Virus record (IMG/VR): IMGVR_UViG_2547132278_000008
Location: 1-12,292 of that record
DNA from: a virus
Lineage: Duplodnaviria; Heunggongvirae; Uroviricota; Caudoviricetes
Direction: 5' to 3' (one strand)
DNA length: 12,292 nt
Shown piece after piece: positions 1-12,292 of the stretch. Under the pieces are notes generated by a model. It was not told the DNA's origin. It was given only the letters and a program-made list of their open reading frames with translations, and searched no databases. The stretch's first letter is position 1; each line of letters starts with the position of its first letter. The position numbers and the translations under genes are program-made.

Positions 1-769
<769 letters not shown>

Positions 770-774
770 AACAA

Positions 775-814
775 AAGCCTGCTTTAAAGAGAGTTTGAAG
801 CAGGCTTTCTTTTA
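775..814 (+). terminator. Rho-independent terminator after the exonuclease remnant
   Basis: 10-bp stem AAGCCTGCTT (775-784) pairs with AAGCAGGCTT (799-808), followed by TCTTTT. Confidence 0.6.
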
Positions 815-929
815 AAGAACAGTCGCCTTTCAATCATTTCCTGCCTGTATTTAATACTTTTCCGCCTGATAGGTTTAGTCAAAATGCAGCCATCGAAACG
901 CAAATGTAACCAAACAGAAGGAGACTTAC

Positions 930-1739
930 ATGAGTTCGGTTGAAAATGTAATGACAAATGATGATCTGGACGAGCTGACAGCCATGTTGCAATCACTTGA
1001 TGAACCAGTAAAAAAAGCTGCACAGGTTGAAAATACTGATGATATTGACGATCTGCTGCTCGGCCTAGATGCTGGCGTAGCCATGAGTTCTGATGATGTT
1101 GCCGAAGAACTGTTCAATGAAGAAAAAGCAGGTGATTTCAGCTCTACTTTAAATGAGTTGGAGTTAGCGCATGAGCCTATAAACGTAATTAACGCTGAAA
1201 GTGTTGAAGCTGCCGAAAACGAGCCAGAACAATTGGGATTTATTGAGGTTGAAGAGTGTGTTGAGGTTAATGATGAATTAAAAGTTCAACAGTCAAATGA
1301 TAGCAATACAAATAAAAAAGCTCGTACTGCAAGAGGTCCTCGTTTTACTTTAAGTGATAAAGATGATTCGTTTTTCAATAAAGCGGGCTTAGAAAAAGAT
1401 ATTTTCTTAGACGCTTACGATAACGCGCCTGTCAAAGCAAAGGATAAGATATTAAACCTTCTTAATTGGTTTAGCGGAGGTCCAGATATTAGTGTTTACA
1501 CGGTAATTTCCATGAGACACCTTCTCACAGAAAAGAAGGCTACAAGTAATAGTATTAAGATTGCTTTAATGAGCAATCCAGAAAAACCGTATCCGCTTAA
1601 CACTGCGTCAACTCAGGCTGGGCAAATGATGGCTGTATTTCCAGCGACAGGAATTGCCGTTAGAGACGGTGGAAATCTAACATTGAACGAAGAATCACCG
1701 ATCGTTAAGAAGTTTGTCGCGGAGTACACTATTGGATGA
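930..1739 (+). CDS. Hypothetical protein with a strongly acidic N-terminal half (269 aa); candidate DNA-mimic or anti-restriction protein
   Basis: ATG at 930 with GGAG 8 nt upstream. The first ~125 residues hold roughly 35 Asp/Glu against ~4 Lys by hand count; the C-terminal half is mixed-charge. No recognised motif. Confidence 0.6.
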   Translation: MSSVENVMTNDDLDELTAMLQSLDEPVKKAAQVENTDDIDDLLLGLDAGVAMSSDDVAEELFNEEKAGDFSSTLNELELAHEPINVINAESVEAAENEPEQLGFIEVEECVEVNDELKVQQSNDSNTNKKARTARGPRFTLSDKDDSFFNKAGLEKDIFLDAYDNAPVKAKDKILNLLNWFSGGPDISVYTVISMRHLLTEKKATSNSIKIALMSNPEKPYPLNTASTQAGQMMAVFPATGIAVRDGGNLTLNEESPIVKKFVAEYTIG

Positions 1740-1815
1740 CGTTCCCCTACTTAAAATAAAGCCCATAGAGAGCTTTATAGTACTGGGTAAGCCAATCACA
1801 TACCCAGCACCACAA

Positions 1816-1864
1816 AAACGCGCCAGAGAGCTTCTCGTTTGCATTTCTGGCGCGTTTTATTTGA
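1816..1864 (+). terminator. Rho-independent terminator
   Basis: 12-bp stem AAACGCGCCAGA (1816-1827) pairs with TCTGGCGCGTTT (1846-1857), followed by TTTTATTT. Confidence 0.55.
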
Positions 1865-1922
1865 TTGCCAGACATAAAATCAAATGCAAAAATAGGTATA
1901 TACTTACCTATCGAGAAAGAAG

Positions 1923-2516
1923 ATGATTGCAGCCGAAAAAATCAAACAGCGAAAGCGCGACAACTCTCTTCGTGACCTCTGGAGAACACCTGACTGGCTG
2001 TTTTCTGCCATTCAACGTTATCTTGGAGTGACATTTGATGTTGACGTTGCCTGCAACAAGGACAATGCAAAGCTGCCTAATTTCATAGGCGTTGAGCGTG
2101 ATGCTTTGAAATCTGAATGGGGACAGCCAGGTACAATTGCCTTCCTCAATCCACCCTACTCCAAAATCTACCCCTGGATTGATGCGGCTATACGTGAGCA
2201 GGCTCGCGGAGTTACAACAGTGATGCTAATTCCTCAATCCCTAGATACAAAGTGGTATGAGCGTGCAACAGAGTGTGCGAATGAGACGATTATTCTGTCT
2301 GGTGGCCGCGTAGCGTTTGTCGAGCCTGACGTAAATCTGGGTCAGGTAGAAGTAAACATCAACCCAGGTGGCAGTATGCTCGTTGTTTTTCGAGGATTCT
2401 GTCAGGACGCTGGGCACTCTATAAGCAAGATCCCTTTGGACGTCATGAAAAGTCTGGGAGGGTATGATCCTGCGAATGTGATCAGGAAAAAAAGACCATC
2501 AAAGAAGGCTGCTTAG
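1923..2516 (+). CDS. Phage-type DNA N6-adenine methyltransferase (small Dam family, 197 aa)
   Basis: Motif IV FLNPPYS is present, and the WRTPDWLF N-terminal signature and ~200 aa size match the small phage Dam family from memory. An inverted repeat ATAGGTA...TACCTAT (1893-1912) lies just upstream of the start. Confidence 0.8.
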   Translation: MIAAEKIKQRKRDNSLRDLWRTPDWLFSAIQRYLGVTFDVDVACNKDNAKLPNFIGVERDALKSEWGQPGTIAFLNPPYSKIYPWIDAAIREQARGVTTVMLIPQSLDTKWYERATECANETIILSGGRVAFVEPDVNLGQVEVNINPGGSMLVVFRGFCQDAGHSISKIPLDVMKSLGGYDPANVIRKKRPSKKAA

Positions 2517-2537
2517 TTTGTTCTGGCGTCTGTAATT

Positions 2538-2602
2538 AGCCTGCTTCTGTATATATAAATAACCACATATTAATTATTAATATACGGAAGCAGGCTGTTT
2601 TG
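2538..2602 (+). terminator. Long-loop hairpin with T-tract (terminator-like) after the methyltransferase
   Basis: AGCCTGCTTC (2538-2547) pairs with GAAGCAGGCT (2587-2596), then GTTTTG. The loop is 39 nt and AT-rich. The stem core is the same as in the 775-808 terminator. Confidence 0.4.
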
Positions 2603-2701
2603 TATCAGAGACTCCAGACCTGAACATCACTACAGAATCCACTAGAACCCCTTCCCAGACGCTTTAAAATCGATTTTATGAACCACTTTAAGGAAACCAA
2701 C

Positions 2702-2932
2702 ATGTCATACCCGACTAATGTCGTTGCGCTCGTAGAGAGCGATTTTCTGGCCCAGGCTCGTGAAATGATGAAAGATCGTGAGCAGGCTTTCAACTTGTAC
2801 GAATGGGCAATTAAGTGCTTGCATCTTGGCGAGCATCGCGAACTTGTTGAACAGCTTTTAGGTGAGTTGATCAATGAGGTGTTTGCCTTGAATGTTCAAC
2901 TACATGGTAGAGAAAATAATCAATCACAATGA
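2702..2932 (+). CDS. Hypothetical small protein (76 aa; alternative start at 2678)
   Basis: ATG at 2702 preceded by AAGGA (2690-2694). Translation MSYPTNVVALVESDFLAQAREMMKDREQAFNLYEWAIK... has no recognised motif. Confidence 0.4.
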   Translation: MSYPTNVVALVESDFLAQAREMMKDREQAFNLYEWAIKCLHLGEHRELVEQLLGELINEVFALNVQLHGRENNQSQ

Positions 2933-3514
2933 TAGATAAGTACAAACTATTCATAAAGTGAATTGTAAGTGCTAAGATCTGATAGTTTCCAGTCGTAGAC
3001 TGGAGACTCGACCTGATGGGTGGGGGTAAGCGTCACTGGCGTCAGGTTTAAAAAAGCTCACTACCAGCGTAGAACTGGTGCCGTTTAGGTGTCGGGGAAG
3101 GGGGAACCAAAGTGAGCAGAGACAAGGGTCACTTTATGATTGTCGAGTCTGGGGTGTTTCGAGAGGTTGAATCCAGTACTCCCCTTCATAAAGTGTGGGA
3201 AGATCTCGGTTCTGGGGTGCTGTCATCCATAACTTCCCAAGTCTAAGCTGGCAGTAGACTTAGACCATAACTTTTCAGGTTATGAAACGACCAGGTTGGT
3301 GAGAGATTTTTATACTCACCTCCCTGGGAGAGTATTACCTGAAAAGACAACCTCTCACTTCGTTCGAGGTGAACTTCACTCACTTCGTTCGTTCAGTTCA
3401 GGTTTATAAAAACCTGTTCTGGGAAGTAATTTGTTTATTTTAATAATTATTAACACGCACGCGTGTGCGCACGCGCGAGGAAAAATCGGCGCGGCGCTTG
3501 ATTCAGGAGTTTAT
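2933..3514. other. ORF-free, repeat-rich and hairpin-rich intergenic region; candidate structured ncRNA, origin or regulatory hub
   Basis: No ORF of 60 aa or more on either strand. Hairpins include CCAGTC gta GACTGG (2989-3003), GGTGAG...CTCACC (3298-3320) and AGGTTT ataa AAACCT (3401-3416). Direct repeats include TCTGGGGTG at 3138-3146 and 3211-3219, and CACTTCGTTCG at 3356-3366 and 3381-3391. Confidence 0.3.
3453..3477. repeat. 25-nt perfectly alternating purine-pyrimidine tract (Z-DNA-prone) with central CACGCGTG palindrome
   Basis: ACACGCACGCGTGTGCGCACGCGCG read directly; lies about 40 bp upstream of the RNase HI start codon. Confidence 0.9.
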
Positions 3515-4105
3515 ATGACGACGAAGACACCAGCCCGATCGCAAGCAAAAACTCGCAAAAAAGACAAAAACAAAAATTCTCCCCGCACCAATCCCACAAC
3601 GCCTGTCGTAGAGTTCAATCCCCAGCTTAAAACCGTGAAAATCTTTAGTGATGGCTCTTGCCTTAAAAATCCGGGTGGCCCGGGCGGTTACGGTATCGTT
3701 CTCCAGTATCGTGGTGAGGAACGCGAGTTCTCAGATGGTTTTCATAGCACCACCAATAACCGCATGGAGATGATGGGGGCACTTATCGGGCTGGAGCGTT
3801 TGAAATATCCATGCAACGTTATTTTGCACTCTGATAGCCAGTATCTGAAAAACGGCATGACACAGTGGATGAAATGGTGGAAACGCAATGGATGGATGAC
3901 TTCTGACAAAAAACCGGTAAAGAATGTTGATCTGTGGAAGCGTCTGGATGAGGCCGCAAGTCGACATAATGTTCGCTGGAAGTGGGTTAAAGGTCACGCC
4001 GGGCATCGTGAAAATGAAATATGTGATCGACTCGCGAAGATCGCAGCTTTTTCAGCAGCAGATATGCCTCACAAGAAAGATATTGGTTTTGTTTATAACA
4101 AATAG
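3515..4105 (+). CDS. Ribonuclease HI paralog (196 aa) with a ~45-aa basic N-terminal extension
   Basis: AGGAG at 3505-3509 precedes ATG 3515. The core aligns by eye to E. coli RNase HI with all catalytic residues present: IFSDGSC (D), NNRMEMMGA (E), HSDSQY (D), [18 protein letters not shown] (H, D). The extension is Lys/Arg/Pro/Thr-rich. Confidence 0.85.
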
Positions 4106-4202
4106 TAAGTAAGTGTTTACCTATCATTTTAAATCATGTATCTTATCGGCGTCAGGATGACAATGTGTCGGTAAGACACAGTTCCAGGATGGAACGAGAA
4201 AG

Positions 4203-4224
4203 GCGGCTGGCAATCGCCAGCCGC
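4203..4224 (+). terminator. GC-rich hairpin (possible terminator or 5'UTR structure)
   Basis: GCGGCTGGC aatc GCCAGCCGC forms a 9-bp stem; the downstream tail CTCTTTCT is only weakly U-rich. Confidence 0.35.
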
Positions 4225-4253
4225 AACTCTTTCTGACACTGGATGGAGTCCAC

Positions 4254-4748
4254 ATGGCACGTCAAACCTATTTCACTTCTGTAACTAAACGTCCTCGTTC
4301 TTTACGTCAAATTTTGGCCGAATTATTTAGCGGTCGTGTTATGTCACGTCTTGATGAACTAGAGACTACCGTTCGGTTGCTGAATGAACGTTTAGATAAT
4401 CAAGCGTCAGTTGTTGCGAACGTGGGGGCGATTGTTGCCTCTGGTTCTTCACGCGAAGCGAAAAGTACACGGCCTTTAGTGAAGGAGAAAAACAACAAGG
4501 ACAGTTCGAATGGAAAATTTTCAAAGAAAGAGGCTGAAACCAATGGCCTACGTTCTCATTATAGTTTCACTGGCGACGGTAGCCGTTCCAGCCGGCCAGA
4601 GCCTTTTGATGCCGGGTTCATCCATCACCACACCTCCGTCGACGACAATTACCACCACTCCAGTAGAGCGTCCTGTCACTCTGGATGGGATGACGGTGGA
4701 TGCGATACCTCAAGTTCATCCGGTTACTCAGGATCATGCTGTGACTAA
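4254..4748 (+). CDS. Hypothetical protein; N-terminal ~85 aa look coding, C-terminal part is doubtful (overlapped by a +1 frame ORF)
   Basis: GGAG at 4245-4248 precedes ATG 4254. The N-terminus is coiled-coil-like, but after about residue 90 the translation becomes Ser/His/Cys/Gly-rich low complexity. Confidence 0.35.
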   Translation: MARQTYFTSVTKRPRSLRQILAELFSGRVMSRLDELETTVRLLNERLDNQASVVANVGAIVASGSSREAKSTRPLVKEKNNKDSSNGKFSKKEAETNGLRSHYSFTGDGSRSSRPEPFDAGFIHHHTSVDDNYHHSSRASCHSGWDDGGCDTSSSSGYSGSCCD

Positions 4749-4761
4749 GGCGGTTGTATGA
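4510..4761 (+). CDS. Small putative secreted or membrane-anchored Thr/Pro-rich protein (83 aa)
   Basis: AAGGA at 4496-4500 precedes ATG 4510. It has a signal-peptide-like N-terminus (MENFQRKRLKPMAYVLIIVSLATVAVPAGQS) and a TTPPSTTITTTP tract, and its stop overlaps the next start as ATGA. Confidence 0.4.
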   Translation: MENFQRKRLKPMAYVLIIVSLATVAVPAGQSLLMPGSSITTPPSTTITTTPVERPVTLDGMTVDAIPQVHPVTQDHAVTKAVV

Positions 4762-4946
4762 ACTGGTTTTCAAATCACTTTGGAAAAATTTGGCTGGCAA
4801 TTCTTGCCCTCATGGCCGCCGGTTGGGTATCGAACATTATAAAACTTGTTTGCTCTGGCGATCTCCAGTTTCAGGCTGGCATGACCTTGGCTCGTGTAGT
4901 TGGGATTTTTGTTTTTCCAGTCGGTTCGGTACTTGGTTATTTCTGA
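4758..4946 (+). CDS. Small membrane protein (62 aa, two predicted transmembrane helices)
   Basis: ATG 4758 overlaps the preceding stop (ATGA). Hydrophobic segments IWLAILALMAAGWV and VVGIFVFPVGSVLGYF. Confidence 0.45.
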   Translation: MNWFSNHFGKIWLAILALMAAGWVSNIIKLVCSGDLQFQAGMTLARVVGIFVFPVGSVLGYF

Positions 4947-5001
4947 CGGCTGTTAGTGCATATGCATTGACCATCTTTGCGTAAGCAATTTATGTAATTA
5001 G

Positions 5002-5020
5002 AAAACAACTTGTTTTGACA
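5002..5020. promoter_or_regulatory. Perfect palindromic operator-like site AAAACAA-C-TTGTTTT overlapping a consensus TTGACA hexamer
   Basis: Read directly at 5002-5016; TTGACA at 5015-5020. Sits 23 nt upstream of ATG 5040. A possible -35/-10 pair (TTGACC 4967-4972, TATGTA 4991-4996) lies upstream, but the promoter assignment is uncertain. Confidence 0.45.
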
Positions 5021-5039
5021 AATAATAAAAGGAAAACAC

Positions 5040-5465
5040 ATGTTAGGTTTCTTCAAAAAGAAAACTCGTAAAGCTGTTATCGAAGTCAAAAAAATGGAGA
5101 ACCGTGATGCGGTTGAGGCCACCGTGTGGGGCGCGTACATGATCTCCTATGCCGACGGCACATGTGACGCAAAAGAAATTGCCATTCTTGAGAAGACAAT
5201 TGCAGCTCTGCCTGCGTTTTCTCCGTTTGCTGGTGAAATTGCCCAAATGAGCGCCAATATCCGTGCTCGTTACGAAGCGTCCCCTCGTTCTGCTAATGCA
5301 CAGGCTATTCGTGAGCTGTCTGATATTGCGGGTACTCCAGAGGCGGTCGATGTTCTGTGTCTGTGCCTTGATATTGCCGATCAGGACGGCATTGGTGAAC
5401 AAGAAGAGCAGGCACTGAAAAAGATCGCCCAGGCGCTTCAGTTGTCACTGGATGCTTATCTCTAA
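5040..5465 (+). CDS. TerB-like (tellurite-resistance TerB family) protein, 141 aa
   Basis: AAGGA at 5029-5033 precedes ATG 5040. Two TerB-type repeats with acidic Asp-Gly motifs (ISYADGTCDAKEIAILEK and CLDIADQDGIGEQEEQALKKI) match the TerB architecture from memory. Confidence 0.7.
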   Translation: MLGFFKKKTRKAVIEVKKMENRDAVEATVWGAYMISYADGTCDAKEIAILEKTIAALPAFSPFAGEIAQMSANIRARYEASPRSANAQAIRELSDIAGTPEAVDVLCLCLDIADQDGIGEQEEQALKKIAQALQLSLDAYL

Positions 5466-5623
5466 TGCTTGAGAGATTCCGGCTTGTGATCGTCATTGCT
5501 CTTCTGGTGATGGCGGTGTTGGTGGATTTTACGGGAAAGATGATGTCTGTCATTTCTGATGGCGTCCTCATTGGTTTGGCGATCTACTTCGCTTATCCGT
5601 TAGTTCGTAAAGCAAAGTGTTAA
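5465..5623 (+). CDS. Unannotated small membrane protein (52 aa), translationally coupled to the TerB-like gene
   Basis: TAATG stop/start overlap at 5463-5467. Hand translation gives MLERFRLVIVIALLVMAVLVDFTGKMMSVISDGVLIGLAIYFAYPLVRKAKC with two hydrophobic segments. It is below the 60-aa threshold of the ORF track. Confidence 0.5.
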   Translation: MLERFRLVIVIALLVMAVLVDFTGKMMSVISDGVLIGLAIYFAYPLVRKAKC

Positions 5624-5625
5624 TG

Positions 5626-5653
5626 ACAAGGGCCATTTGGCCCTTGTGTTTCG
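5626..5653 (+). terminator. Rho-independent terminator after the TerB-like/membrane pair
   Basis: ACAAGGGCC attt GGCCCTTGT forms a 9-bp stem, then GTTTCG. Confidence 0.5.
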
Positions 5654-5730
5654 TTGACCGAAATAGAGAGTTTGCACCTTTACGTTTAGCTTGCTCCCCT
5701 TTTATGCCACATCACAATAAAGCCAATAAG

Positions 5731-5745
5731 AAAACAACTTGTTTA
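5731..5745. promoter_or_regulatory. Second copy of the operator-like palindrome (AAAACAACTTGTTTA)
   Basis: Matches the 5002-5016 site at 14 of 15 positions within a shared AGAAAACAACTTGTTT context; sits 17 nt upstream of ATG 5763. Confidence 0.45.
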
Positions 5746-5762
5746 AGCATTAAGGAAAACAC

Positions 5763-6329
5763 ATGTGCGAGAAATGCAAAGCAATAGCTGATGAACAAAA
5801 CGCCCTATTCGAAGAAATGGATGCTAATGAACTTGTCAAAATGTTAGGCATTGTTCGGGGAACAGAAGACGTTTCTATATTTGAGAGACTGTTTACAGTA
5901 CTTAATTTTAATTCCACCTTTGAAGAGCCAACTCAGGTTGTAGCTTTGGCACACCATTTCGGTGTTCATTATCTTGCCGAAAAAGAGCGCGCTAATAAGT
6001 TGCAGGCGACTTTGGATATGGTGAGCGAGACTCAAGGAACCCATGACGGTAACAATAGTGAGACGATTATTGCCAGCAAAGATCGTGAAATTGCCGGACT
6101 TAAGTCTTCTCTAACGATGTTGATGTCTGCAATCAATCTTATGTCTTCTAAAGCGGGATATAAAATGCCATCACTAAACAGTGACGATCCAATGGCCGTT
6201 CGCCAGCTTTTGGGAGCAATGGCCGACCAGCTTGATGATACGAAAAGTCGGCTTGAAGACATGATGCGGGAGCTTACGCATCGCCACGACTTGAATAAGC
6301 AACCGCACAAAACGCAATACGCACTCTAA
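5763..6329 (+). CDS. Hypothetical protein (188 aa)
   Basis: AAGGA at 5752-5756 precedes ATG 5763. No recognised motif. The gene has its own operator-like site upstream and a terminator downstream. Confidence 0.6.
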   Translation: MCEKCKAIADEQNALFEEMDANELVKMLGIVRGTEDVSIFERLFTVLNFNSTFEEPTQVVALAHHFGVHYLAEKERANKLQATLDMVSETQGTHDGNNSETIIASKDREIAGLKSSLTMLMSAINLMSSKAGYKMPSLNSDDPMAVRQLLGAMADQLDDTKSRLEDMMRELTHRHDLNKQPHKTQYAL

Positions 6330-6346
6330 TACTGCACCAGTCGACA

Positions 6347-6368
6347 GGGGGCGAAAGCCCCCATTTTT
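6347..6368 (+). terminator. Rho-independent terminator with GAAA tetraloop
   Basis: GGGGGC gaaa GCCCCC followed by ATTTTT. Confidence 0.7.
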
Positions 6369-6427
6369 ACGCCTTAAATCTGCTGTAACGCCTATGAATG
6401 CAGCTTTTATGCCTTTTTAAGTTTGCG

Positions 6428-6472
6428 ATAATTACACCAATCAGAAAACAAATTATTTAATGGTGTAATTAT
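6428..6472. promoter_or_regulatory. 12-bp perfect inverted repeat embracing a degenerate operator motif and the start codon of the 6471 gene
   Basis: ATAATTACACCA (6428-6439) pairs with TGGTGTAATTAT (6461-6472). The 21-nt spacer holds AAAACAAaTTATTTA (6445-6459), and the A and T of ATG 6471 lie inside the right arm. Confidence 0.45.
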
Positions 6473-8156
6473 GAATACAGCCCTTTCCATCATCGACGAT
6501 GCCAGCTCAAACACGGCTATCGACTATCGTCAGGAAATGAATGTCATCCACGAAATCGTGGCCGAGTGCGAGAAAGAGATCGCCTTCATGTATCAGGTAC
6601 ACGACTTCGTTTATGGCGACGAACGCCACAACATGATTAATCGCCTGCTGAGACTAAACCATCGACCAGATGAAGATCGCTCGCGTTTAAATCGAGGTTG
6701 GTTGGATAAAGTCGATCTGGAATGGGTGAAACAGAATATTTGGGCCGAGTACTGGAGGAAGGTCACGGACATGACTAACGTTTTGCTGATCATGCCAGCT
6801 TCCCGTCGAGATGAGTGGCGCGAGCAGTTTATAGAGGGCAAACAGGAAGTCATCAAAACTGACAGAACCGGCTGCCAGATGAAGGTTAAAGAGTTCGTTG
6901 GTGTACCGGAGTTCAAAGCAGAAACGGTCATACCCACGATGCTTAATTTGCTGAATGACAGGCACAAATATCTCTCTGAGCGCGTGTATGGCTTGTTTAA
7001 GGCGCTGAGTCCTGCGCACAAGACAAATAAGACAAACGGTTTCAGCGAGCGTCTGATAATCGCTGACTGCATTTCTGATTTCTGGCGGGACAGCGTTAGC
7101 GTGAACTATCGCAAAGAGGACTACATCGACGATCTGCGTGTCTTGCTTCATTTCTTCGCGCACAAAGAATTTATTACCATCAACCGCACTGCTGAGGTGC
7201 TATCAGCTGCGTATCGGGCAAACGACTGCCAGACCGGTGACTGGATGAACGTCGATGGAAATCTGATGCGCGTGAAGATGTTCAAGAACGGCAACGTTCA
7301 CTTTGAAATACATCCTGACGTGGCCTGGAAGTTGAATGAGGTGCTGGCTTACAGTATGCCTGCTGCAATCCCCGCGCCATGCCGAACTGCGCCAAAAACA
7401 CGGGCACCAAAGCAGTTCGGGTTAATCCAGAAGACGATCTCCGTGCCGGTTCGCACTGCGCTTCGTGACGGGCGATTGAGCAAAGACAAAGGCGTATGGT
7501 ACTTCTCTGATTCAGCTCTCCAGAAGTCGCAGGTGGAAGAGCTTGAGCGCACACTGAGCTTCATTGGCGGCGTGCAGGAGAAAAAGCACTGGCAGTTCCC
7601 GTATGACATCGGCCATACGCTAAATACGATTGTGGCTACCGGTTTAATACCGGATACAAAATCACACCAGTTCTACCCTACCCCACGCTTGATTGCTGAG
7701 TACGTTGCAAGAGCCACTGAATTGAAGCCTGGTGAGAAGCTGTTGGAGCCTCAAGCCGGACGTGGGGATCTTCTGGCCTATATAAACGCCGATCTGGAAG
7801 ATGTTACCTGCATAGAAATCGCACCTCTCTTCGCTGATATCCTGCGTGGAAAAGGGTATACGAACACGATTTGCTGCGACTTCATAAAGTGGTCTGAGGA
7901 CAACGCAGGTTATCAGTTCGACAAAATCGTTATGAACCCGCCGTACTCGCTTGGTCGTCATAGAGAGCACACGCTGGCTGCGCTGGGGCATCTGAAAGTC
8001 GGCGGGCGTCTTGTAGCAGTATTGCCGGGCACTGCGCCAATACTGGACTGGATGACGATGGATAATTACGTTTATGCCAGAGGGAAGTCGTTTACCAACG
8101 AGTTTGAAGACACAGGGATCACAGTCAGCGTATACGTTTTCAAACGCGTTAAATGA
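6471..8156 (+). CDS. Large protein (561 aa): N-terminal ~400 aa of unknown function fused to a C-terminal N6-adenine methyltransferase domain
   Basis: A motif I-like segment (LLEPQAGRGDLLAYI) and motif IV (VMNPPYS) sit in the last ~150 residues. The N-terminal region has no motif I recognise. Confidence 0.75.
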   Translation: MNTALSIIDDASSNTAIDYRQEMNVIHEIVAECEKEIAFMYQVHDFVYGDERHNMINRLLRLNHRPDEDRSRLNRGWLDKVDLEWVKQNIWAEYWRKVTDMTNVLLIMPASRRDEWREQFIEGKQEVIKTDRTGCQMKVKEFVGVPEFKAETVIPTMLNLLNDRHKYLSERVYGLFKALSPAHKTNKTNGFSERLIIADCISDFWRDSVSVNYRKEDYIDDLRVLLHFFAHKEFITINRTAEVLSAAYRANDCQTGDWMNVDGNLMRVKMFKNGNVHFEIHPDVAWKLNEVLAYSMPAAIPAPCRTAPKTRAPKQFGLIQKTISVPVRTALRDGRLSKDKGVWYFSDSALQKSQVEELERTLSFIGGVQEKKHWQFPYDIGHTLNTIVATGLIPDTKSHQFYPTPRLIAEYVARATELKPGEKLLEPQAGRGDLLAYINADLEDVTCIEIAPLFADILRGKGYTNTICCDFIKWSEDNAGYQFDKIVMNPPYSLGRHREHTLAALGHLKVGGRLVAVLPGTAPILDWMTMDNYVYARGKSFTNEFEDTGITVSVYVFKRVK

Positions 8157-8217
8157 TAGGTAAATACTTACTTAATTTATGTAAGAATGTAGTTACTAAA
8201 CGATAAGAGAAAAACAC

Positions 8218-8922
8218 ATGAGCAACCTCCAGTTAGAGCATTTTAACGTCACAGGCCATTCCGATTTTCCTTTCAAGTTTACATTGAAAGGTTATGCAGA
8301 GGATGCGGTAGGCCAGATCATTATTGATAAAGGCATCGTTAAGTTTGAGGGGAATTTTGATGAATCCGCGAAAACATTCATAGACTTCGTTGCCAAACGT
8401 TGGAGCGAGCAATGGAAAGACCTGGAAAAGCGCGCTAGTGAGTTTGATCGGTTCATGGATGCAATGGATACAGCAAAAGAGGCTCTTGCTGCCGGGACTC
8501 CGTTAGATCTGGAGTCACTTTTCAACGGCGAAGTGGCCTCTGCGATGTTCGCCACCATGTTCGCGGGTGAGTTCGTCCGCAGCGGTGCCAAAAACTACCT
8601 TGAGCTGGATTACAACGTCCCTGCAATTGGCGATTTCGTCGTTACCATCCAACGCAAAGAAGGTAAGACGCCAGGTGAACGCGTCGCAGAGCTTGAGGCC
8701 GTTGTGGATCAGCGTAACGGAGAGTGTGACCGTTTGATCAACGAGCTTCATGCACTTCGGGAAGAAAGAATATGCGCGGGTAGTAATACACGTAATGCAG
8801 CGGATATCTACTTCCAGTTAGTTGAGGAATGCCAGATTCCACCAGGTGGCTCTCTTGTCGATTACGTCAGACATTTAATGGCGGAAGTTAACTCCAGCCA
8901 TAAAGATGGTGAGGTGCGCTGA
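8218..8922 (+). CDS. Hypothetical protein (234 aa), downstream of the methyltransferase fusion with no intervening terminator
   Basis: Leader ...AAGAGAAAAACACATG. Long ORF with a clean shadow pattern; no recognised motif. Confidence 0.6.
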   Translation: MSNLQLEHFNVTGHSDFPFKFTLKGYAEDAVGQIIIDKGIVKFEGNFDESAKTFIDFVAKRWSEQWKDLEKRASEFDRFMDAMDTAKEALAAGTPLDLESLFNGEVASAMFATMFAGEFVRSGAKNYLELDYNVPAIGDFVVTIQRKEGKTPGERVAELEAVVDQRNGECDRLINELHALREERICAGSNTRNAADIYFQLVEECQIPPGGSLVDYVRHLMAEVNSSHKDGEVR

Positions 8923-9302
8923 TGTTTGGCATTGATGCACAGCGTATAGCAGCTTTTGCAAAAAGTCCTCTTGATAATCCCTTGTCTCGTAGTGAGCAAA
9001 TGGCGCTGGCAAGGCTTTTTCTTCACATTCAAAAACAGGCAGACGTTTTCAATAACATGCCTGATCAACCTATTCTGGATGGTCACATCCAGATGGTCAT
9101 TAACAGTCATGAGAAAGGCTGGGCTGCAATCGTCCCCTGCACAATTACATACAAGTTGGCGAAAGAGGTTCAAGAGTTTCGAAAAGTCAGCGTCGAATCA
9201 GAGTCTACCAAAGCCGCAATAAACACTCTTATTCGCATGGGGTTCACATGGGACGGTGGAGCTTACTGGCAAGCACCTCAACCCATTTTATCCGACAATT
9301 AG
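8922..9302 (+). CDS. Hypothetical protein (126 aa), translationally coupled to the 8218 gene
   Basis: TGATG stop/start overlap at 8920-8924. No recognised motif. Confidence 0.55.
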   Translation: MFGIDAQRIAAFAKSPLDNPLSRSEQMALARLFLHIQKQADVFNNMPDQPILDGHIQMVINSHEKGWAAIVPCTITYKLAKEVQEFRKVSVESESTKAAINTLIRMGFTWDGGAYWQAPQPILSDN

Positions 9303-9332
9303 GCGCTACAAATCCTTCTGCATGAATAAATA

Positions 9333-9367
9333 AAGGCCATAAGTTATGGCCTTAAATAAATTGTTTT
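9333..9367 (+). terminator. Hairpin with downstream T-tract (terminator-like); tail carries a degenerate operator half-site
   Basis: AAGGCCATAA g TTATGGCCTT (9333-9353), then AAATAAATTGTTTT (9354-9367). Confidence 0.45.
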
Positions 9368-9440
9368 CTACCTTTTCTTATTTGTGAAAATAAACCAGCA
9401 CTTGGTAGTGCTTATGTAACAGCAAAGAAGAGAAAAACAC

Positions 9441-9941
9441 ATGAGTAACAAAATCGAAAATCCCGTAGTTCTCATTCACAAGCGCGAGAACCACGACTCC
9501 TATGCGGTGGCGATCACCAATGGGAGTCACGATTTTTACGATGGCCTGCTAATGGCCTCAGTGTCGCCTGATGAGGCAGACAACTCTTTTGCCGTCTTCG
9601 CTATGGTTGGTTACTACATGGCTGCCGAAATTGAGAAGTTGCGGGCGCAAAGAGACGCATTAGCGGCGGAGAATGCAGCCCTGAAAGAATCTGAGCGAGC
9701 ATTCGATGCGATGTGTGCCGAGGAACACGGAGATAATTGGGTTAGCGAATTAACGGAGACTCCAGCCACCGATACTTTTCTGGCTGAAGTACGTGCGCAG
9801 GGCGTGGATATGGCTCGTAACGCGATGATTGATTTTGTTGATGGTGAAGTTGGGCCAAACAAGAACGTTCCGGGGCTGATTAGAGGCGCAGAGATATGCG
9901 TAAGTATTGCTGAACAGCTTCGTAAAGGAGTCATCCAGTGA
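9441..9941 (+). CDS. Hypothetical phage protein (166 aa), first gene of a six-gene coupled operon
   Basis: Leader ...GAAGAGAAAAACACATG. Contains a coiled-coil-like AEIEKLRAQRDALAAENAALKE segment. Confidence 0.6.
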   Translation: MSNKIENPVVLIHKRENHDSYAVAITNGSHDFYDGLLMASVSPDEADNSFAVFAMVGYYMAAEIEKLRAQRDALAAENAALKESERAFDAMCAEEHGDNWVSELTETPATDTFLAEVRAQGVDMARNAMIDFVDGEVGPNKNVPGLIRGAEICVSIAEQLRKGVIQ

Positions 9942-10405
9942 GCAAGATTGACTATCAGGCACTGCGTGAAAAGGCAGAGAAAGCAACGTGTGGTAAGTGG
10001 TCGCTCGAATATGGAGAGAGCCGATTTGATGGTGATGATGCGCTAATTCATCGTGAAGTTGCTGGATATATTCCTATTTGCAGAATTGAAGGAGCGCATC
10101 CTGAAAGCGGTTTCGATGAAGATTTCCAGATGGAACAGCAGGCCAATGCTGAATTCATCGCCGCAGCCAGTCCAGCTACCGTGCTGGCACTACTGGATGA
10201 GATCAACGCATTAGAGGAAACGCGTATCAACGATGTTTGCCGTATTGCGGAACTAACAAAACAACTGGAGTTGGCAAAATCAAAACTCAACGAGCAGCGT
10301 GAGTATTACGAGGGCGTTATCTCGGATGGAAGTAAGCGCATAGCCGCTCTTCTTCGCAAGGACAATCTTGCCAGCGCCACGAACATTGAAGGTGAAAGAA
10401 AATGA
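9938..10405 (+). CDS. Ead/Ea22-like phage protein (155 aa)
   Basis: GTG start with AAGGAG at 9925-9930; GTGA overlap with the upstream stop. The N-terminal [18 protein letters not shown] and later [23 protein letters not shown] resemble lambdoid Ea22-like proteins from memory. Confidence 0.6.
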
Positions 10406-10725
10406 CCACATCGCACTCTGCTATTACCCAAGAAAAAGCCTTCAACATACTCGAACGACTAGAGACGCTCGCTACGGAGGAGGATATATCCCCGGAGAAA
10501 CTGGTTGAGTTCAGCCGTGTGATATTGCGTCGCAAGAACGATATGGAGCGGCTGACATCTGGCGCTCCATCCTTATCAGTCAGGCGAACACTTTGTTGCA
10601 GCTTCTGCAACAAATCCCAGTACGCCGTCAAAAAGTTAATTGCTGGGGACGCCGTTTTCATCTGCGACGAGTGTGTGGATGTGTGCAACAGAATTATCCG
10701 GGGAGAGAAAGAGGGATCAGCATGA
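10402..10725 (+). CDS. Small protein with a C-terminal ClpX-type C4 zinc-finger domain (107 aa)
   Basis: ATGA overlap at 10402-10405. [35 protein letters not shown] aligns closely to the ClpX N-terminal zinc-binding domain ([34 protein letters not shown]). Confidence 0.65.
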
Positions 10726-11252
10726 AATTTTCCAAATTTTCTGAGTTGGTGAATCGTATTTTGTCCAACAACCACAGCCATCGTCGCGATATGGATGTAA
10801 CGATCGTTGTTCATTCGCCTGGTCGCATCGGTTCAACACCATCAGTTGAGGTTCAGTCAATTCAGGCGGGTTTTGATTGGGATGCCGGGCAAGTGATGAT
10901 TTTTCCAGCACAGCCACTGACCACGCTAACACCAGAGCAGGTTGCTGATATCACTGATAGTGTGCGCAAAGGTCAGTCTTGGCACGCGTATCAGGAATAC
11001 AAGAAGCATAAAGAGCAGTTGGAAAAATTGTCGATGGAGTTGGAAGCCGCTAAACAGCGGGAAAAAGATCTGTTTATGGAAAATGTTCGACTTAAGTCAG
11101 GTATAGCCGGTCTGATACACCTCGGTATTCGATATGCGGATGTTGAGGTCATGAAAATTGCTGGAGATGCCCAGCTTTCTACTCCATGCACTGACAGCAT
11201 CATAAACAGCATTGCAGCAGGCATTTTCACCAAAGAGGGGGCAGCACGATGA
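10722..11252 (+). CDS. Hypothetical protein (176 aa)
   Basis: ATG 10722 overlaps the upstream stop (ATGA), with GAGGG 6 nt upstream. The track ORF 10593..11252 is an in-frame 5' extension that overlaps the previous gene. Confidence 0.55.
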
Positions 11253-11434
11253 GAACACTAGAGGTTCGCGCTGAAGACGTAATCCCTGGTGATGTGCTCA
11301 TAACATCTAAAGGTCAACAATGTGCGGTTAAATCTTTTTGGATGGAAAATGACAAAGTGACTCTGTTCGGTACGGATGGTTCCGAAACTGATTATGACTA
11401 CGACGAATTGCTTGTTGTTGAGAGAGCTGCCTAA
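11249..11434 (+). CDS. Hypothetical small protein (61 aa)
   Basis: ATGA overlap at 11249-11252 with AGAGGGGG upstream. Confidence 0.45.
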   Translation: MRTLEVRAEDVIPGDVLITSKGQQCAVKSFWMENDKVTLFGTDGSETDYDYDELLVVERAA

Positions 11435-11940
11435 TGACCACCGTTAACAATAAGAAATGCTACCCAAGCGAGAAATATCTTAATGAGCTGATCACCAACA
11501 TTGAGTTTGCTGCAAGGGCACCAGTTGAAGTCGTGAGAGCGATTGCAGCAGAGCTACAGAAGCACCGTAAGGCCTATGCCAATACAGCCGCATCTAAGGA
11601 TGGTTGGATAAGCTGTAGTGAGCGAATGCCTGTAATTGGCGAGCTAAATTGGAGAACTAGTTTTCCTTTACTGGTTATGTGTGAGATCGGCGTTATACCT
11701 GCTTATTACGGCTTTGTGAGCGTTAATGGTGATAGGCATTATGGCTTTATGGAGAGTCTTAAATACGGAGACGATAACGGCAACCATCCTCAAACTAATG
11801 AATATGGTCTGATTAGCAATGTCACACACTGGATGCCACTACCAGAACGCCGCAGGAGTCGAACAGTGAATAATGCAGAGTTATTTCAGAAAATATGTAA
11901 GCGTCAACGGAGCACCGTATTGACGCTTATTTATTGGTGA
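11434..11940 (+). CDS. DUF551-like phage protein; last ~14 codons and stop are supplied by the inserted IS66 terminus (3'-disrupted)
   Basis: TAATG overlap at 11432-11436. GWISCSERMP and THWMPLPE motifs are typical of DUF551 from memory. The IS-like terminus begins at 11897, inside the ORF. Confidence 0.55.
   Translation: MTTVNNKKCYPSEKYLNELITNIEFAARAPVEVVRAIAAELQKHRKAYANTAASKDGWISCSERMPVIGELNWRTSFPLLVMCEIGVIPAYYGFVSVNGDRHYGFMESLKYGDDNGNHPQTNEYGLISNVTHWMPLPERRRSRTVNNAELFQKICKRQRSTVLTLIYW
11897..11929. repeat. Terminal inverted repeat of the IS66-family element (starts GTAAGCG), containing an internal 9-bp palindrome
   Basis: GTAAGCGTCAACGGAGCACCGTATTGACGCTTA; IS66-family ends typically begin 5'-GTAA. 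Internal arms AAGCGTCAA and TTGACGCTT. Confidence 0.55.
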
Positions 11941-12292
11941 GTACTACGTTCCATGGCAGGAGTTCGTCAACACGGTTGGAGGGCCATTCCGGCAGTACGC
12001 TCAGAATATGGCGCAGATACGCTTCCGGATCGATACCGTTCAGTCGGCAGGTGCCGATCAGCCCGTACAGCAGTGCTCCACGCTCGCCGCCGTGATCGCT
12101 ACCGAAGAACACGTAATTTTTCTTTCCGAGACAGACTGCACGAAGCGCTCTTTCCGCTGTGTTATTGTCCACCTCCGCCAGACCGTCATCACTGTAATAA
12201 CAGAGGGCGTCCCACTGATTCAGTACATAGCTGAACGCTTCGCCCAGTCTGGATTTTTTCGACAGCGTGCCATTCTTCTCCACCATCCATTC
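11927..12292 (-). CDS. IS66-family transposase (TnpC-like), C-terminal part; 5' end outside window
   Basis: The - strand translation ...NNTAERALRAVCLGKKNYVFFGSDHGGERGALLYGLIGTCRLNGIDPEAYLRHILSVLPEWPSNRVDELLPWNVVLTNK matches the conserved IS66 transposase C-terminus from memory. Confidence 0.8.
   Translation of the reverse strand, partial: EWMVEKNGTLSKKSRLGEAFSYVLNQWDALCYYSDDGLAEVDNNTAERALRAVCLGKKNYVFFGSDHGGERGALLYGLIGTCRLNGIDPEAYLRHILSVLPEWPSNRVDELLPWNVVLTNK

Follow-up and report, generated by a model that had tools for sequence, protein, structure and literature searches.

A probable large structured non-coding RNA gene in SSU5/pHCM2-type phage-plasmids of Enterobacteriaceae

We analyzed a 12,292-nucleotide stretch of Caudoviricetes DNA (positions 1 to 12,292 of the IMG/VR virus record IMGVR_UViG_2547132278_000008), hereafter the window, with a focus on the gap at 2933-3514 that precedes the ribonuclease (RNase) HI gene rnhA. 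Positions 2985 to approximately 3430 of the plus strand very probably encode a highly structured non-coding RNA, about 450 nt long, that has not been described before. The RNA is specific to the SSU5/pHCM2-type phage-plasmids of Enterobacteriaceae, has its own conserved extended -10 promoter (putative), and is under stronger sequence constraint than the flanking protein genes. It is neither a small protein gene nor an iteron array, and it has no fixed link to RNase HI. Our best guess, held with rather less than even confidence, is that it is an origin-associated transcript of the vegetative (lytic) replicon.

Conservation, fold, and transcription of the RNA

Homologues of the RNA from six genera (Escherichia, Salmonella, Klebsiella, Enterobacter, Cronobacter, Citrobacter) align readily from approximately 3007 to 3430, and 55 distinct homologues make up the alignment used here. 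In Salmonella, Enterobacter, Cronobacter, and Klebsiella elements, the core shares 89-95% identity with the window, compared with only 75-81% DNA identity for the flanking Dam methylase gene, 76-aa gene, and rnhA across the same elements. The 76-aa gene has a nucleotide identity of 65-80%, again versus 89-95% for the core of the RNA. Cronobacter sp. JZ38 and three IMG/VR contigs form the most distant clade, with an identity of 69% in the core and 65-69% in the coding flanks. One-base insertions or deletions inside the core are shared by entire clades. The features of the RNA gene are as follows.

2950-2978, plus strand: putative sigma-70 promoter, with a -35-like TTCATA (2950-2955), a 17-nt spacer, and an extended -10 TGcTAAGAT (2970-2978)
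2984-3008, plus strand: 5' hairpin of the RNA (inverted repeat I6), forming helix 1, with 4/4 counted pairs changed on both sides
3009-3346, plus strand: core of the structured RNA, a multi-helix domain (RNAalifold, pair counts)
3011-3022/3034-3047, 3057-3061/3112-3116, and 3125-3127/3338-3340, plus strand: core helices (RNAalifold)
3130-3139/3186-3195, 3196-3202/3233-3239, and 3215-3219/3224-3228, plus strand: core helices (RNAalifold)
3241-3250/3255-3265 and 3291-3303/3315-3327, plus strand: core helices (RNAalifold)
3266-3272/3278-3284, or alternatively 3271-3283/3334-3346, plus strand: core helix (RNAalifold)
3019-3027 and 3094-3106, plus strand: G-rich loops of the core
3112-3246, plus strand: spurious 44-aa open reading frame (ORF), annotated as CYRAN_81 in phage Cyrano, over which RNA-seq was counted

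Folding the 55 homologues with RNAalifold yields 19 helices, with an energy of -96 on the plus strand versus -62 on the minus strand. The consensus structure contains 104 pairs, and 99.3% of its 5710 cells are standard pairs. Changes on both sides are seen in 35 of the 104 pairs, versus 11.1 +/- 2.1 in column shuffles (none of 500 reached 35), and sliding the 3' partners by 1-3 columns leaves only 5-7 pairs changed on both sides. Most of these double changes come from few clades, chiefly three L004-type sequences, and independent events are therefore fewer than the cell counts; double changes nonetheless occur in nearly every helix and almost no pairs are broken. Several pairs are invariant or alternate with G-U, which would read A-C on the opposite strand, and the fold therefore belongs to the plus strand. 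The long-range helix 3271-3283/3334-3346 competes with a local hairpin and itself has a compensatory change. UGGGAAG occurs twice (3196-3202 and 3420-3426), each copy complementary to CUUCCCA (3233-3239); only the pairing 3196-3202/3233-3239 co-varies in the divergent clade, and the copy in the 3' tail could pair alternatively in the main clade.

The predicted start of the RNA, near 2984-2985, follows from the position of the promoter. Every clade has a -10-like hexamer (TAAGAT, TAAAAT, TAGAAT, TAACAT, or TACAAT), preceded by TGn in most clades, and a -35 of the TTCATA/TTTAAA type lies 17 nt upstream; the remainder of the spacer is poorly conserved. A simple promoter scan did not flag the promoter at 2950-2978. 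The 5' hairpin begins approximately 7 nt past the -10. Its sequence differs from clade to clade while complementarity is always kept, the arms being TTTCCAG/CTGGAGA, CTGGCAG/CTGCCAG, ATTTCGA/TCGAAAT, and TTCCGG/CCGGAA. This hairpin was considered as a terminator of the upstream gene and rejected, since no U-tract follows it.

The initial annotation of this DNA, made from the letters alone, had described the gap as free of ORFs of 60 aa or more and rich in repeats and hairpins. Both statements hold. The ORF list contains none of at least 60 aa in 2933-3514 on either strand, and those of at least 40 aa are limited to 3112-3246 (plus strand, 44 aa) and 3243-3383 (minus strand, 46 aa). A repeat search of the gap returned six two-copy direct repeats and 11 inverted repeats; CACTTCGTTCG is present twice (3356, 3381; 0.01 expected), as is TCTGGGGTG (3148, 3211; 0.05 expected). 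The minimum free energy of the plus strand is -165.5 kcal/mol (z = -5.2 versus shuffles), with z = -3.9 for the minus strand, such that both repeats and hairpins exceed chance. No tandem repeat array was found in the gap, and all direct repeats are two-copy and irregularly spaced. The GTAGAC-type motifs are also present, at or adjoining predicted hairpin loops: the one at 3255-3260 spans a loop and its 3' stem arm, and that at 3066-3071 is part of a candidate CCAG/CTGG hairpin that is unpaired in the consensus structure and mismatched in most homologues.

Could a small protein explain the conservation instead? The record of phage Cyrano annotates the 44-aa ORF as a gene, and this ORF is intact in 38 of the 55 distinct homologues. 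It has a frameshift or stop in 14 and no start codon in three more, the minus-strand 46-aa ORF is broken in 21 of 55, conservation reaches far past either ORF, and the substitutions are compensatory in helices rather than synonymous. As both small ORFs are broken in many homologues, a protein-coding explanation is excluded at the sequence level, and we consider it extremely improbable that either product accounts for the conservation.

Published RNA-seq data provide evidence of transcription. In a lysogen of Cyrano in E. coli LF82, CYRAN_81 is listed as expressed at 12-fold above the prophage background (PMC9928086, Table 1). Cyrano is 97-98% identical to the window here, and the CYRAN_81 counts cover window positions 3112-3246. 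The log2 fragments per kilobase per million (fpkm) for CYRAN_81 are 6.8/6.9 after overnight growth in LB, 9.3/9.0 at 1 h and 6.9/6.9 at 6 h in medium, and 9.0/8.2 at 1 h and 10.35/10.3 at 6 h in macrophages (PMC9928086, S1 Table). Its neighbours reach log2 fpkm values of 3.4-5.8 (upstream gene) and 2.6-5.0 (rnhA) (PMC9928086). By these counts, the signal of the gap in lysogens is 12- to 40-fold above that of both neighbouring genes, and the gap therefore appears to yield a discrete, abundant transcript, with predicted ends, that is independent of both.

Taken with the promoter, the plus-strand covariation, and the conservation above the flanks, these data strongly support the earlier suggestion that the gap encodes a structured non-coding RNA. 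Among the checks proposed for it were a covariance-model search of Rfam and an alignment of homologues. The alignment revealed the compensatory changes described above and the search matched no family: the Rfam 15 models gave no match at gathering score across the whole window, and at E <= 10 on 2850-3600 there were five sub-threshold noise matches (e.g. a hepatitis C virus stem-loop and microRNAs). ARAGORN detected no tRNA or tmRNA. No prior description of the RNA was found in the literature searched on SSU5/pHCM2 elements, phage-plasmids, and non-coding or structured RNA.

As a family, the RNA resembles GOLLD, ROOL, HEARO/omega RNA, OLE, and raiA in being hundreds of nucleotides long, in having many covariation-backed helices, in lacking a function that is obvious from context, and in residing on a phage-type element. 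Unlike these RNAs, whose covariance models it does not match, it is hosted by phage-plasmids of Enterobacteriaceae, has no associated IscB or TnpB, and is about 67 kb away from the tRNA cluster of its element. New large structured RNAs are rare, and the earlier classes OLE, GOLLD, ROOL, HEARO, and raiA each opened new biology. The present one is a new family of unusual size and conservation on widespread, clinically relevant mobile elements.

The 3' hairpins and their motif in other genomes

The two copies of CACTTCGTTCG form the loops of two adjacent hairpins, at 3351-3369 (CCTC/GAGG) and 3370-3400 (TGAACT/AGTTCA). These and the features that follow them are listed below.

3351-3369, plus strand: hairpin motif copy 1, CCTC-TCACTTCGTTC-GAGG, invariant in 55/55 homologues save the middle loop base (T, A, G, or C)
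3370-3400, plus strand: hairpin 2, with stem TGAACT/AGTTCA around the second motif core CTCACTTCGTTCG (3379-3391; direct repeat D3)
3399-3429, plus strand: third hairpin CAGG...CCTG (3399-3416) and tail TTCTGGGAAGTAA (3417-3429), a possible 3' end region of the RNA
3430-3453, no strand: AT-rich tract, of a length that varies among clades
3454-3477, no strand: alternating C/G-rich near-palindrome CACGCACGCGTGTGCGCACGCGCG (inverted repeat I4), between the AT-rich tract and the rnhA ribosome-binding site

Hairpin 2 (helix 18) is 100% paired, and double changes affect three of its six pairs. The most divergent clade (L004, L013, L034) has only a truncated form of the second motif copy. The arms of the third hairpin co-vary among clades (CAGGTTT/AACCTG, CAGGGGA/CCCCTG, CAGGTAA/AACCCG), and the tail TTCTGGGAAGTAA is nearly invariant. 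The alternating purine-pyrimidine CG tract also varies in length among clades and is partly deleted in S. Typhi pHCM2 (L007). Together, the AT-rich tract and the CG palindrome may act as an unwinding element and a clamp.

The complementary strand of 3351-3369 reads CCTC-GA-AC-GAA-GT-GA-GAGG, a tandem G.A followed by a C-GNA-G triloop. On this minus strand, the motif has an outer stem, two G.A oppositions in a pyrimidine-GA-purine context, and A-T and C-G pairs that close a GNA triloop, the middle of which is the sole variable base of the motif in the 55 homologues and in more than 150 other contexts. Tandem G.A oppositions stabilize hairpins. The minus strand conforms to the sequence rule for C-GNA-G mini-hairpins, which with any middle base are extraordinarily stable in DNA, to a degree that conventional thermodynamic models fail to explain (PMC13037366). 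Such mini-hairpins are found at primase starts of the G4, St-1, and alpha3 complementary-strand origins, at ssiA of RSF1010, and at the early promoters of N4 (PMC13037366). The resemblance suggests that the motif may be a signal for start or loading, one that would form on the template strand once an origin opens. It would also explain why the motif occurs across very different hosts.

With the mini-hairpin DNA and ssi signals (G4, St-1, alpha3; RSF1010 ssiA/ssiB; N4), the motif shares the C-GNA-G, the free middle base, and the Y-GA-R tandem G.A flanks, as well as, by position, an occurrence at replication origins in other phages. It differs from the sequences of G4, ssiA, and N4 in its longer 17-19-nt consensus, CTC-GA-AC-GNA-GT-GA-GAG, and in its location here inside a transcribed RNA gene; priming and hairpin extrusion are putative here, and standard DNA folding does not single the motif out. 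Wobble pairs in the outer stem were too few to decide the strand of the short hairpin (0 versus 2 informative positions). Other identities were considered and rejected. A T7/T3-type promoter, an IHF or DnaA box, parS, dif, a T-loop/tRNA fragment, a pMV158-type nick site, and a hammerhead core did not fit the sequence. No complement of the repeated loop, at up to two mismatches, was found in 103 of the 113 kb of the same plasmid, and antisense "kissing" of the loop with plasmid targets was likewise rejected on the basis of that search.

To survey the motif elsewhere, IMG/VR was scanned for CCTCTCACTNCGTTCGAGG. The scan returned more than 119 stretches, approximately 50 of them otherwise dissimilar to the window, with an estimated two by chance. 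Scanning for the core with different closing pairs added 62 stretches, of which an estimated 16 are by chance. The 17-19-nt motif CTCTCACTNCGTTCGAG occurs in many unrelated uncultured phages, inside replication-initiator genes. In 16 independent contexts, it lies in a same-strand ORF of 124-373 aa (at least 235 aa in 15/16), at residues 42-229. Seven of eight ORFs tested are phage replication initiators: two match Pfam Phage_rep_O (L010, L024) and the other five match PHROGs 345, 1701, 270, and 1408 ("replication initiation O-like", "DnaD-like helicase loader", "replication initiation protein"). The eighth, L095, has only a weak sub-threshold match to HTH_20. The motif loci include L010, L024, L035, L043, L095, L135, L149, L151, L157, L158, L160, L169, L179, and L189.

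Repeats and AT content were quantified in 15 of the contexts, the one with the 124-aa ORF (L154) being left out. In all 15, a 9-mer is present in 3-5 copies in the 220 nt upstream of the motif, frequently spaced by 11, 22, or 33 bp, compared with at most two copies in the 220 nt downstream. The 30 nt adjoining the motif are more AT-rich than the locus in 13/15 contexts, the exceptions being L179 and L095. To judge from their sequences, these initiator-gene contexts have the classical origin layout of iterons and then an AT-rich tract, with the motif at the far edge. The layout is like that of lambda-type origins (iterons, AT-rich tract, and a right-hand inverted repeat in the O gene) in that the motif takes the right-hand place in many O-like and DnaD-like genes and is transcribed in the sense direction, both in the initiator genes and in the window. 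The window is unlike lambda-type origins in having neither iterons nor an initiator gene around the motif. To our knowledge, lambda itself does not contain this motif.

The bases flanking the motif differ among contexts and remain complementary. On either side of the peptide LT[TS]FE, the flanking codons co-vary as Pro..Gly, Thr..Cys, Ser..Ser, or Ala..Arg, and other reading frames also occur. Extension of the stem by at least three pairs is seen in 47 of 169 distinct contexts, compared with about eight when the flanks are randomly re-paired. The complementarity of the flanks and the excess of extended stems point to selection on the hairpin as a nucleic acid. GCGCGC tracts that follow the motif in initiator genes were rejected as part of the element, as they may merely encode a conserved ...ERAR... 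peptide.

The exact 19-mer is limited, among cultured phages, to the SSU5-like ones, and the cultured-phage collection contained no annotated relatives of the other motif-bearing origins. Literature searches with exact sequence strings gave no relevant match. The motif appears to be an undescribed origin element, and if it is indeed a start signal, origin mapping in uncultured phages would become directly testable.

A scan of GTDB with one genome per species listed matches across many bacterial phyla and several archaea, about 17 being expected by chance. Of those listed, at least about 28 fall by coding coincidence in a single family of Bacilli proteins (...SSNGVRG...), at least about 25 in a multi-copy intergenic repeat of Bacteroidota and relatives, and at least about 12 in a repeat of Candidatus Angelobacter. 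In the Bacilli family, the exact 19-mer codes for ...SSNGVRGASG... within a conserved protein of 644 aa that contains an AAA-type ATPase region (L198, 101-2035, minus strand, with approximately 28 other loci listed from metagenome-assembled genomes (MAGs) of Bacilli and Clostridia). This is a coincidence by descent that inflates the apparent taxonomic spread of the motif.

Other occurrences are non-coding. Intergenic repeats of about 100 nt, present in multiple copies, have the motif as their core in two MAGs of Bacteroidota (L222, L237, L234, L192 in one; L204, L239, L253 in the other) and in Candidatus Angelobacter (L196, L207, L214, L219, L227, L243, L261). Such repeats may be miniature transposable elements (MITEs), small RNAs, or origins. 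The Bacteroidota repeat is of the type ...TTGAAGRYAGA-motif-TGACAGG..., and the Angelobacter repeat consists of a GGGCGYACGCCC hairpin, a spacer of about 22 nt, the motif, and then CAAGCTAAAAA. Rfam has no family for the repeat representatives L222, L237, L204, L214, and L219, and on unrelated motif loci it returned nothing save tRNAs and a T-box elsewhere. Three IMG/VR loci (L089, L099, L133) contain small RNA-like units, in which a G-rich stretch is followed by a long hairpin with the motif as its loop; the units of L089 and L099 end in a UUCG-tetraloop intrinsic terminator. All three are located 64-69 nt from the start of a divergent gene of 112-133 aa, mutually homologous among the loci and with no PHROG match in the two tested (L099, L133). 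In L146 (four copies in 2.1 kb) and L130 (two copies), intergenic cassettes are repeated before successive small genes, in the order stop codon, CACCGCTTCGGCGGTG hairpin, G-rich spacer, motif, TAACTAACTAA-type stop-rich sequence, and next gene. From this order, the cassettes look like promoter- or terminator-type punctuation.

Motif copies with extended stems also occur only a few bases from the ends of tRNA genes, as well as in archaeal genomes: L226 (Natronomonas), L230 (Thermoplasmata), L279, L302, and L225 and L247 (Methanocorpusculum). Their location suggests that those at tRNA ends may be borders of integrated elements, and some of the matches may be due to chance. In L233 (Candidatus Gottesmanbacteria, approximately 148-220), four tandem copies of GTTCGAGGTAAACT, the 3' half of the motif itself, come directly after the motif, and a three-tRNA cluster lies about 300 nt downstream.

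Possible role at a replication origin

The order of elements in the gap is promoter, 19-helix RNA, two origin-type hairpins, third hairpin, AT-rich tract, and CG-rich near-palindrome. On this basis, we propose that transcription and folding of the RNA would stand in for iterons and an initiator by opening the adjacent region. Opening would proceed at the hairpins and then at the AT-rich tract, and the two origin-type hairpins would give the start signal to the helicase and primase of the phage. Analogues of such a model are ColE1 RNA II and the transcription-activated origins of T4, T7, and lambda, although the element belongs to none of those families. As a single explanation of the gap, a structured RNA gene combined with an origin role seems to us evenly balanced between right and wrong.

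The phage-plasmid has its own replication genes, namely those for DNA polymerase III (Pol III) alpha, primase, a DnaB-like helicase, RecA, a 5'-3' exonuclease, ligase, RNase HI, and an epsilon-like exonuclease. A RepB-family plasmid initiator is encoded approximately 17 kb from the gap. No lytic initiator was recognizable among the annotated product names in the 103 kb inspected, where many genes are hypothetical and no profile search was made. The RNA provides a concrete handle on how these elements switch between plasmid and lytic replication.

The closest comparison is with RNA II of ColE1/pMB1. Like it, the RNA is a structured transcript of several hundred nucleotides that has its own constitutive-type promoter (putative here), leads into a replication start region (proposed here), and contains G-rich loops. 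An RNase HI gene is usually adjacent here, and a dedicated initiator is apparently absent for this origin. Unlike RNA II, to which it has no sequence or Rfam similarity, the element does not depend on RNase HI for its conservation. There is also no antisense promoter of the RNA I type over the 5' end, the sole promoter-like site on the minus strand (2991 to 2962) reading away. Furthermore, ColE1 is a plasmid dependent on DNA polymerase I, unlike the phage-plasmid, which encodes a DnaB-like helicase, a primase, and a Pol III alpha of its own; a primer role here is proposed by analogy.

Two of the ideas in the initial annotation bear on replication. An iteron-type origin is not supported: the gap has no repeat array, and the true iteron origins with the same motif carry 3-5 regularly spaced upstream repeats. 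Iterons are taken as at least three direct repeats of about 17-22 bp with regular spacing, and here no 9-mer upstream of the motif exceeds two copies. Nor is a cognate initiator encoded nearby, as the neighbours code for the 76-aa protein, RNase HI, Dam methylase, and an exonuclease. A modified version of the RNA-primed replication idea survives, with the two origin-marking hairpins at the 3' end in its favour and the RNase H link weakened.

Several observations weigh against an origin transcript. Lysogens contain the RNA in abundance, and its level increases in macrophages, in which the lytic cycle appears to be repressed; such expression suits a function in lysogeny at least as well. The AT-rich tract is downstream of the motif here, compared with upstream in iteron origins, and iterons are missing. 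The mini-hairpin would form on the template strand, and an R-loop would hide that strand instead of exposing it. When the motif region is folded as DNA with a nearest-neighbour model, there is no signal on either strand (z = -0.5 and -0.9), and the mini-hairpin therefore rests on sequence rules and position rather than computation. The association of the motif with origins is positional only, and part of its matches are chance or coding coincidences (an estimated 16 of 62 in the second IMG/VR scan). The missing lytic initiator is judged from annotated product names only. As for the RNA itself, the strandedness of the RNA-seq library is unstated in PMC9928086, the ends of the RNA come from prediction rather than mapping, and a terminator scan found no canonical intrinsic terminator on the plus strand inside the gap.

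The main alternative, favoured by the expression data, is an RNA that acts in trans during lysogeny, a non-coding "moron" with no part in the firing of its own origin. Such an RNA might silence the lytic replicon, control maintenance, or serve as a decoy whose two origin-type hairpins would titrate a host or phage factor and thereby block the replication of superinfecting phages. Expression in lysogens is comparable to that of prophage repressors, the RNA is the sole active gene of its module, and it is about 10-fold up in macrophages at 6 h versus the medium control while Cyrano virions are still undetectable. The elaborate conserved fold with its many invariant loops would also be expected of a protein- or RNA-binding scaffold, and the hairpin motif is common to the origins of many unrelated phages. 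However, the absence of a complement to the loop motif in the 103 kb of plasmid makes simple antisense control of its own genes unlikely, and the location in a DNA-replication module beside an AT-rich tract is left unexplained. On balance, we regard a lysogeny RNA as possible and somewhat unlikely. Less likely again is a broader proposal, in which the RNA would be a new class of replication RNA that replaces the iteron-plus-initiator half of an origin with the mini-hairpin as a universal start, or else a lysogen-made decoy that shuts down the replication of rival phages; here, the 17-19-nt hairpin would be an as yet unrecognized core element, shared across phyla, of the origins of bacterial and archaeal phages, plasmids, and proviruses.

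A long leader of the attenuator or riboswitch kind, acting in cis on read-through into rnhA and the genes that follow, would be consistent with an orientation shared with those genes, with the 12-40-fold fall in RNA-seq signal from the RNA to rnhA, as if by termination before rnhA, and with alternative pairings at the 3' end (GAGG with CCTC or with a downstream CACTC/CCTC, and the repeated UGGGAAG). Yet the element is unchanged where the downstream gene differs (a hypothetical protein in L004 and L005, betT in L009), and its ~450 nt and 19 helices are far above known leaders of single small genes. Moreover, it matches no riboswitch or leader family and lacks an intrinsic terminator, and a separate Shine-Dalgarno region serves rnhA about 85 nt past the conserved part, making a leader improbable. 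As for a purely DNA-level element, in which an iteron-type or protein-bound origin or regulatory region would have incidental structure, the origin-type hairpins, the AT-rich tract, and the surrounding replication genes are all present as it would predict. The lack of a repeat array, the strand-specific compensatory changes with G-U pairs, and the putative promoter with its apparently discrete transcript speak against it, and binding sites would keep sequence rather than complementarity. Such an explanation is very improbable overall, and for 3009-3346 it is largely refuted.

Host element and neighbouring genes

Across 751 bases around the gap, E. coli plasmids of approximately 110 kb and the Escherichia phages Cyrano, PhiR41_1, and CMS-2020a match at 97.6-99.7% identity, and Salmonella phage SSU5 and Klebsiella phage-plasmids at 86-91%. 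Given these matches to E. coli plasmids and SSU5-like phages, the window is, as far as sequence identity can tell, a piece of an SSU5/pHCM2-type phage-plasmid of E. coli. The region of the gap is present in 231 of 5426 complete E. coli genomes in RefSeq, where it is nearly always plasmid-borne. In PLSDB, it is found on 686 plasmids of at least seven genera (Klebsiella, Escherichia, Enterobacter, Salmonella, Citrobacter, Cronobacter, Shigella). Phage-plasmids of this type are common in clinical Enterobacteriaceae and carry resistance genes such as dfrA51.

Within the phage-plasmid, the gap sits in a DNA-metabolism module. By annotation and PHROG search, the genes to its left encode an epsilon-like exonuclease, a protein without a named function, Dam methylase, and the 76-aa protein; those to its right are RNase HI, TciA/TerB-like genes, and a large methyltransferase. 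The two immediate neighbours are as follows.

2702-2932, plus strand: gene for a 76-aa protein (PHROG 5343, function unknown), the constant left neighbour, upstream in every homologue inspected
3515-4105, plus strand: rnhA, encoding RNase HI with a basic N-terminal extension (PHROG 531, E 1e-80), the usual but non-obligatory right neighbour

The start of rnhA is at 3515, rather than 3514 or 3516 as initially annotated, and its Shine-Dalgarno sequence GGAG is at 3506-3509, approximately 85 nt past the conserved part. The proposed link to RNase H is only partly borne out. While rnhA is the usual neighbour, it is replaced by other genes in L004, L005, and L009, where the RNA element is kept at 69-95% identity; the element is equally conserved with other downstream genes, and its constant neighbour is the 76-aa gene upstream. 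The right-hand gene encodes a different hypothetical protein in Cronobacter sp. JZ38 and Klebsiella pY9645-105 and is betT in a Citrobacter plasmid. With three homologues having other downstream genes, the partnership with RNase H is therefore not obligatory.

The N-terminal extension of RNase HI (3515-3650) comprises about 45 residues, is basic and rich in Lys, Pro, and Thr, and is far more variable among clades than the catalytic domain. The annotation of SSU5 places the start of rnhA further upstream, within the conserved non-coding region. One related plasmid, NZ_CP022167.1 (L310, L311), carries a type I restriction-modification system, metG and apbC as cargo, and four tRNA genes. Its tape-measure gene is broken by fragments of the insertion sequences IS3, IS911, and IS1, and an HNH endonuclease gene adjoins dnaE. 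In the same plasmid, dfrA51 and a thymidylate synthase gene are located directly upstream of the region that corresponds to the window.

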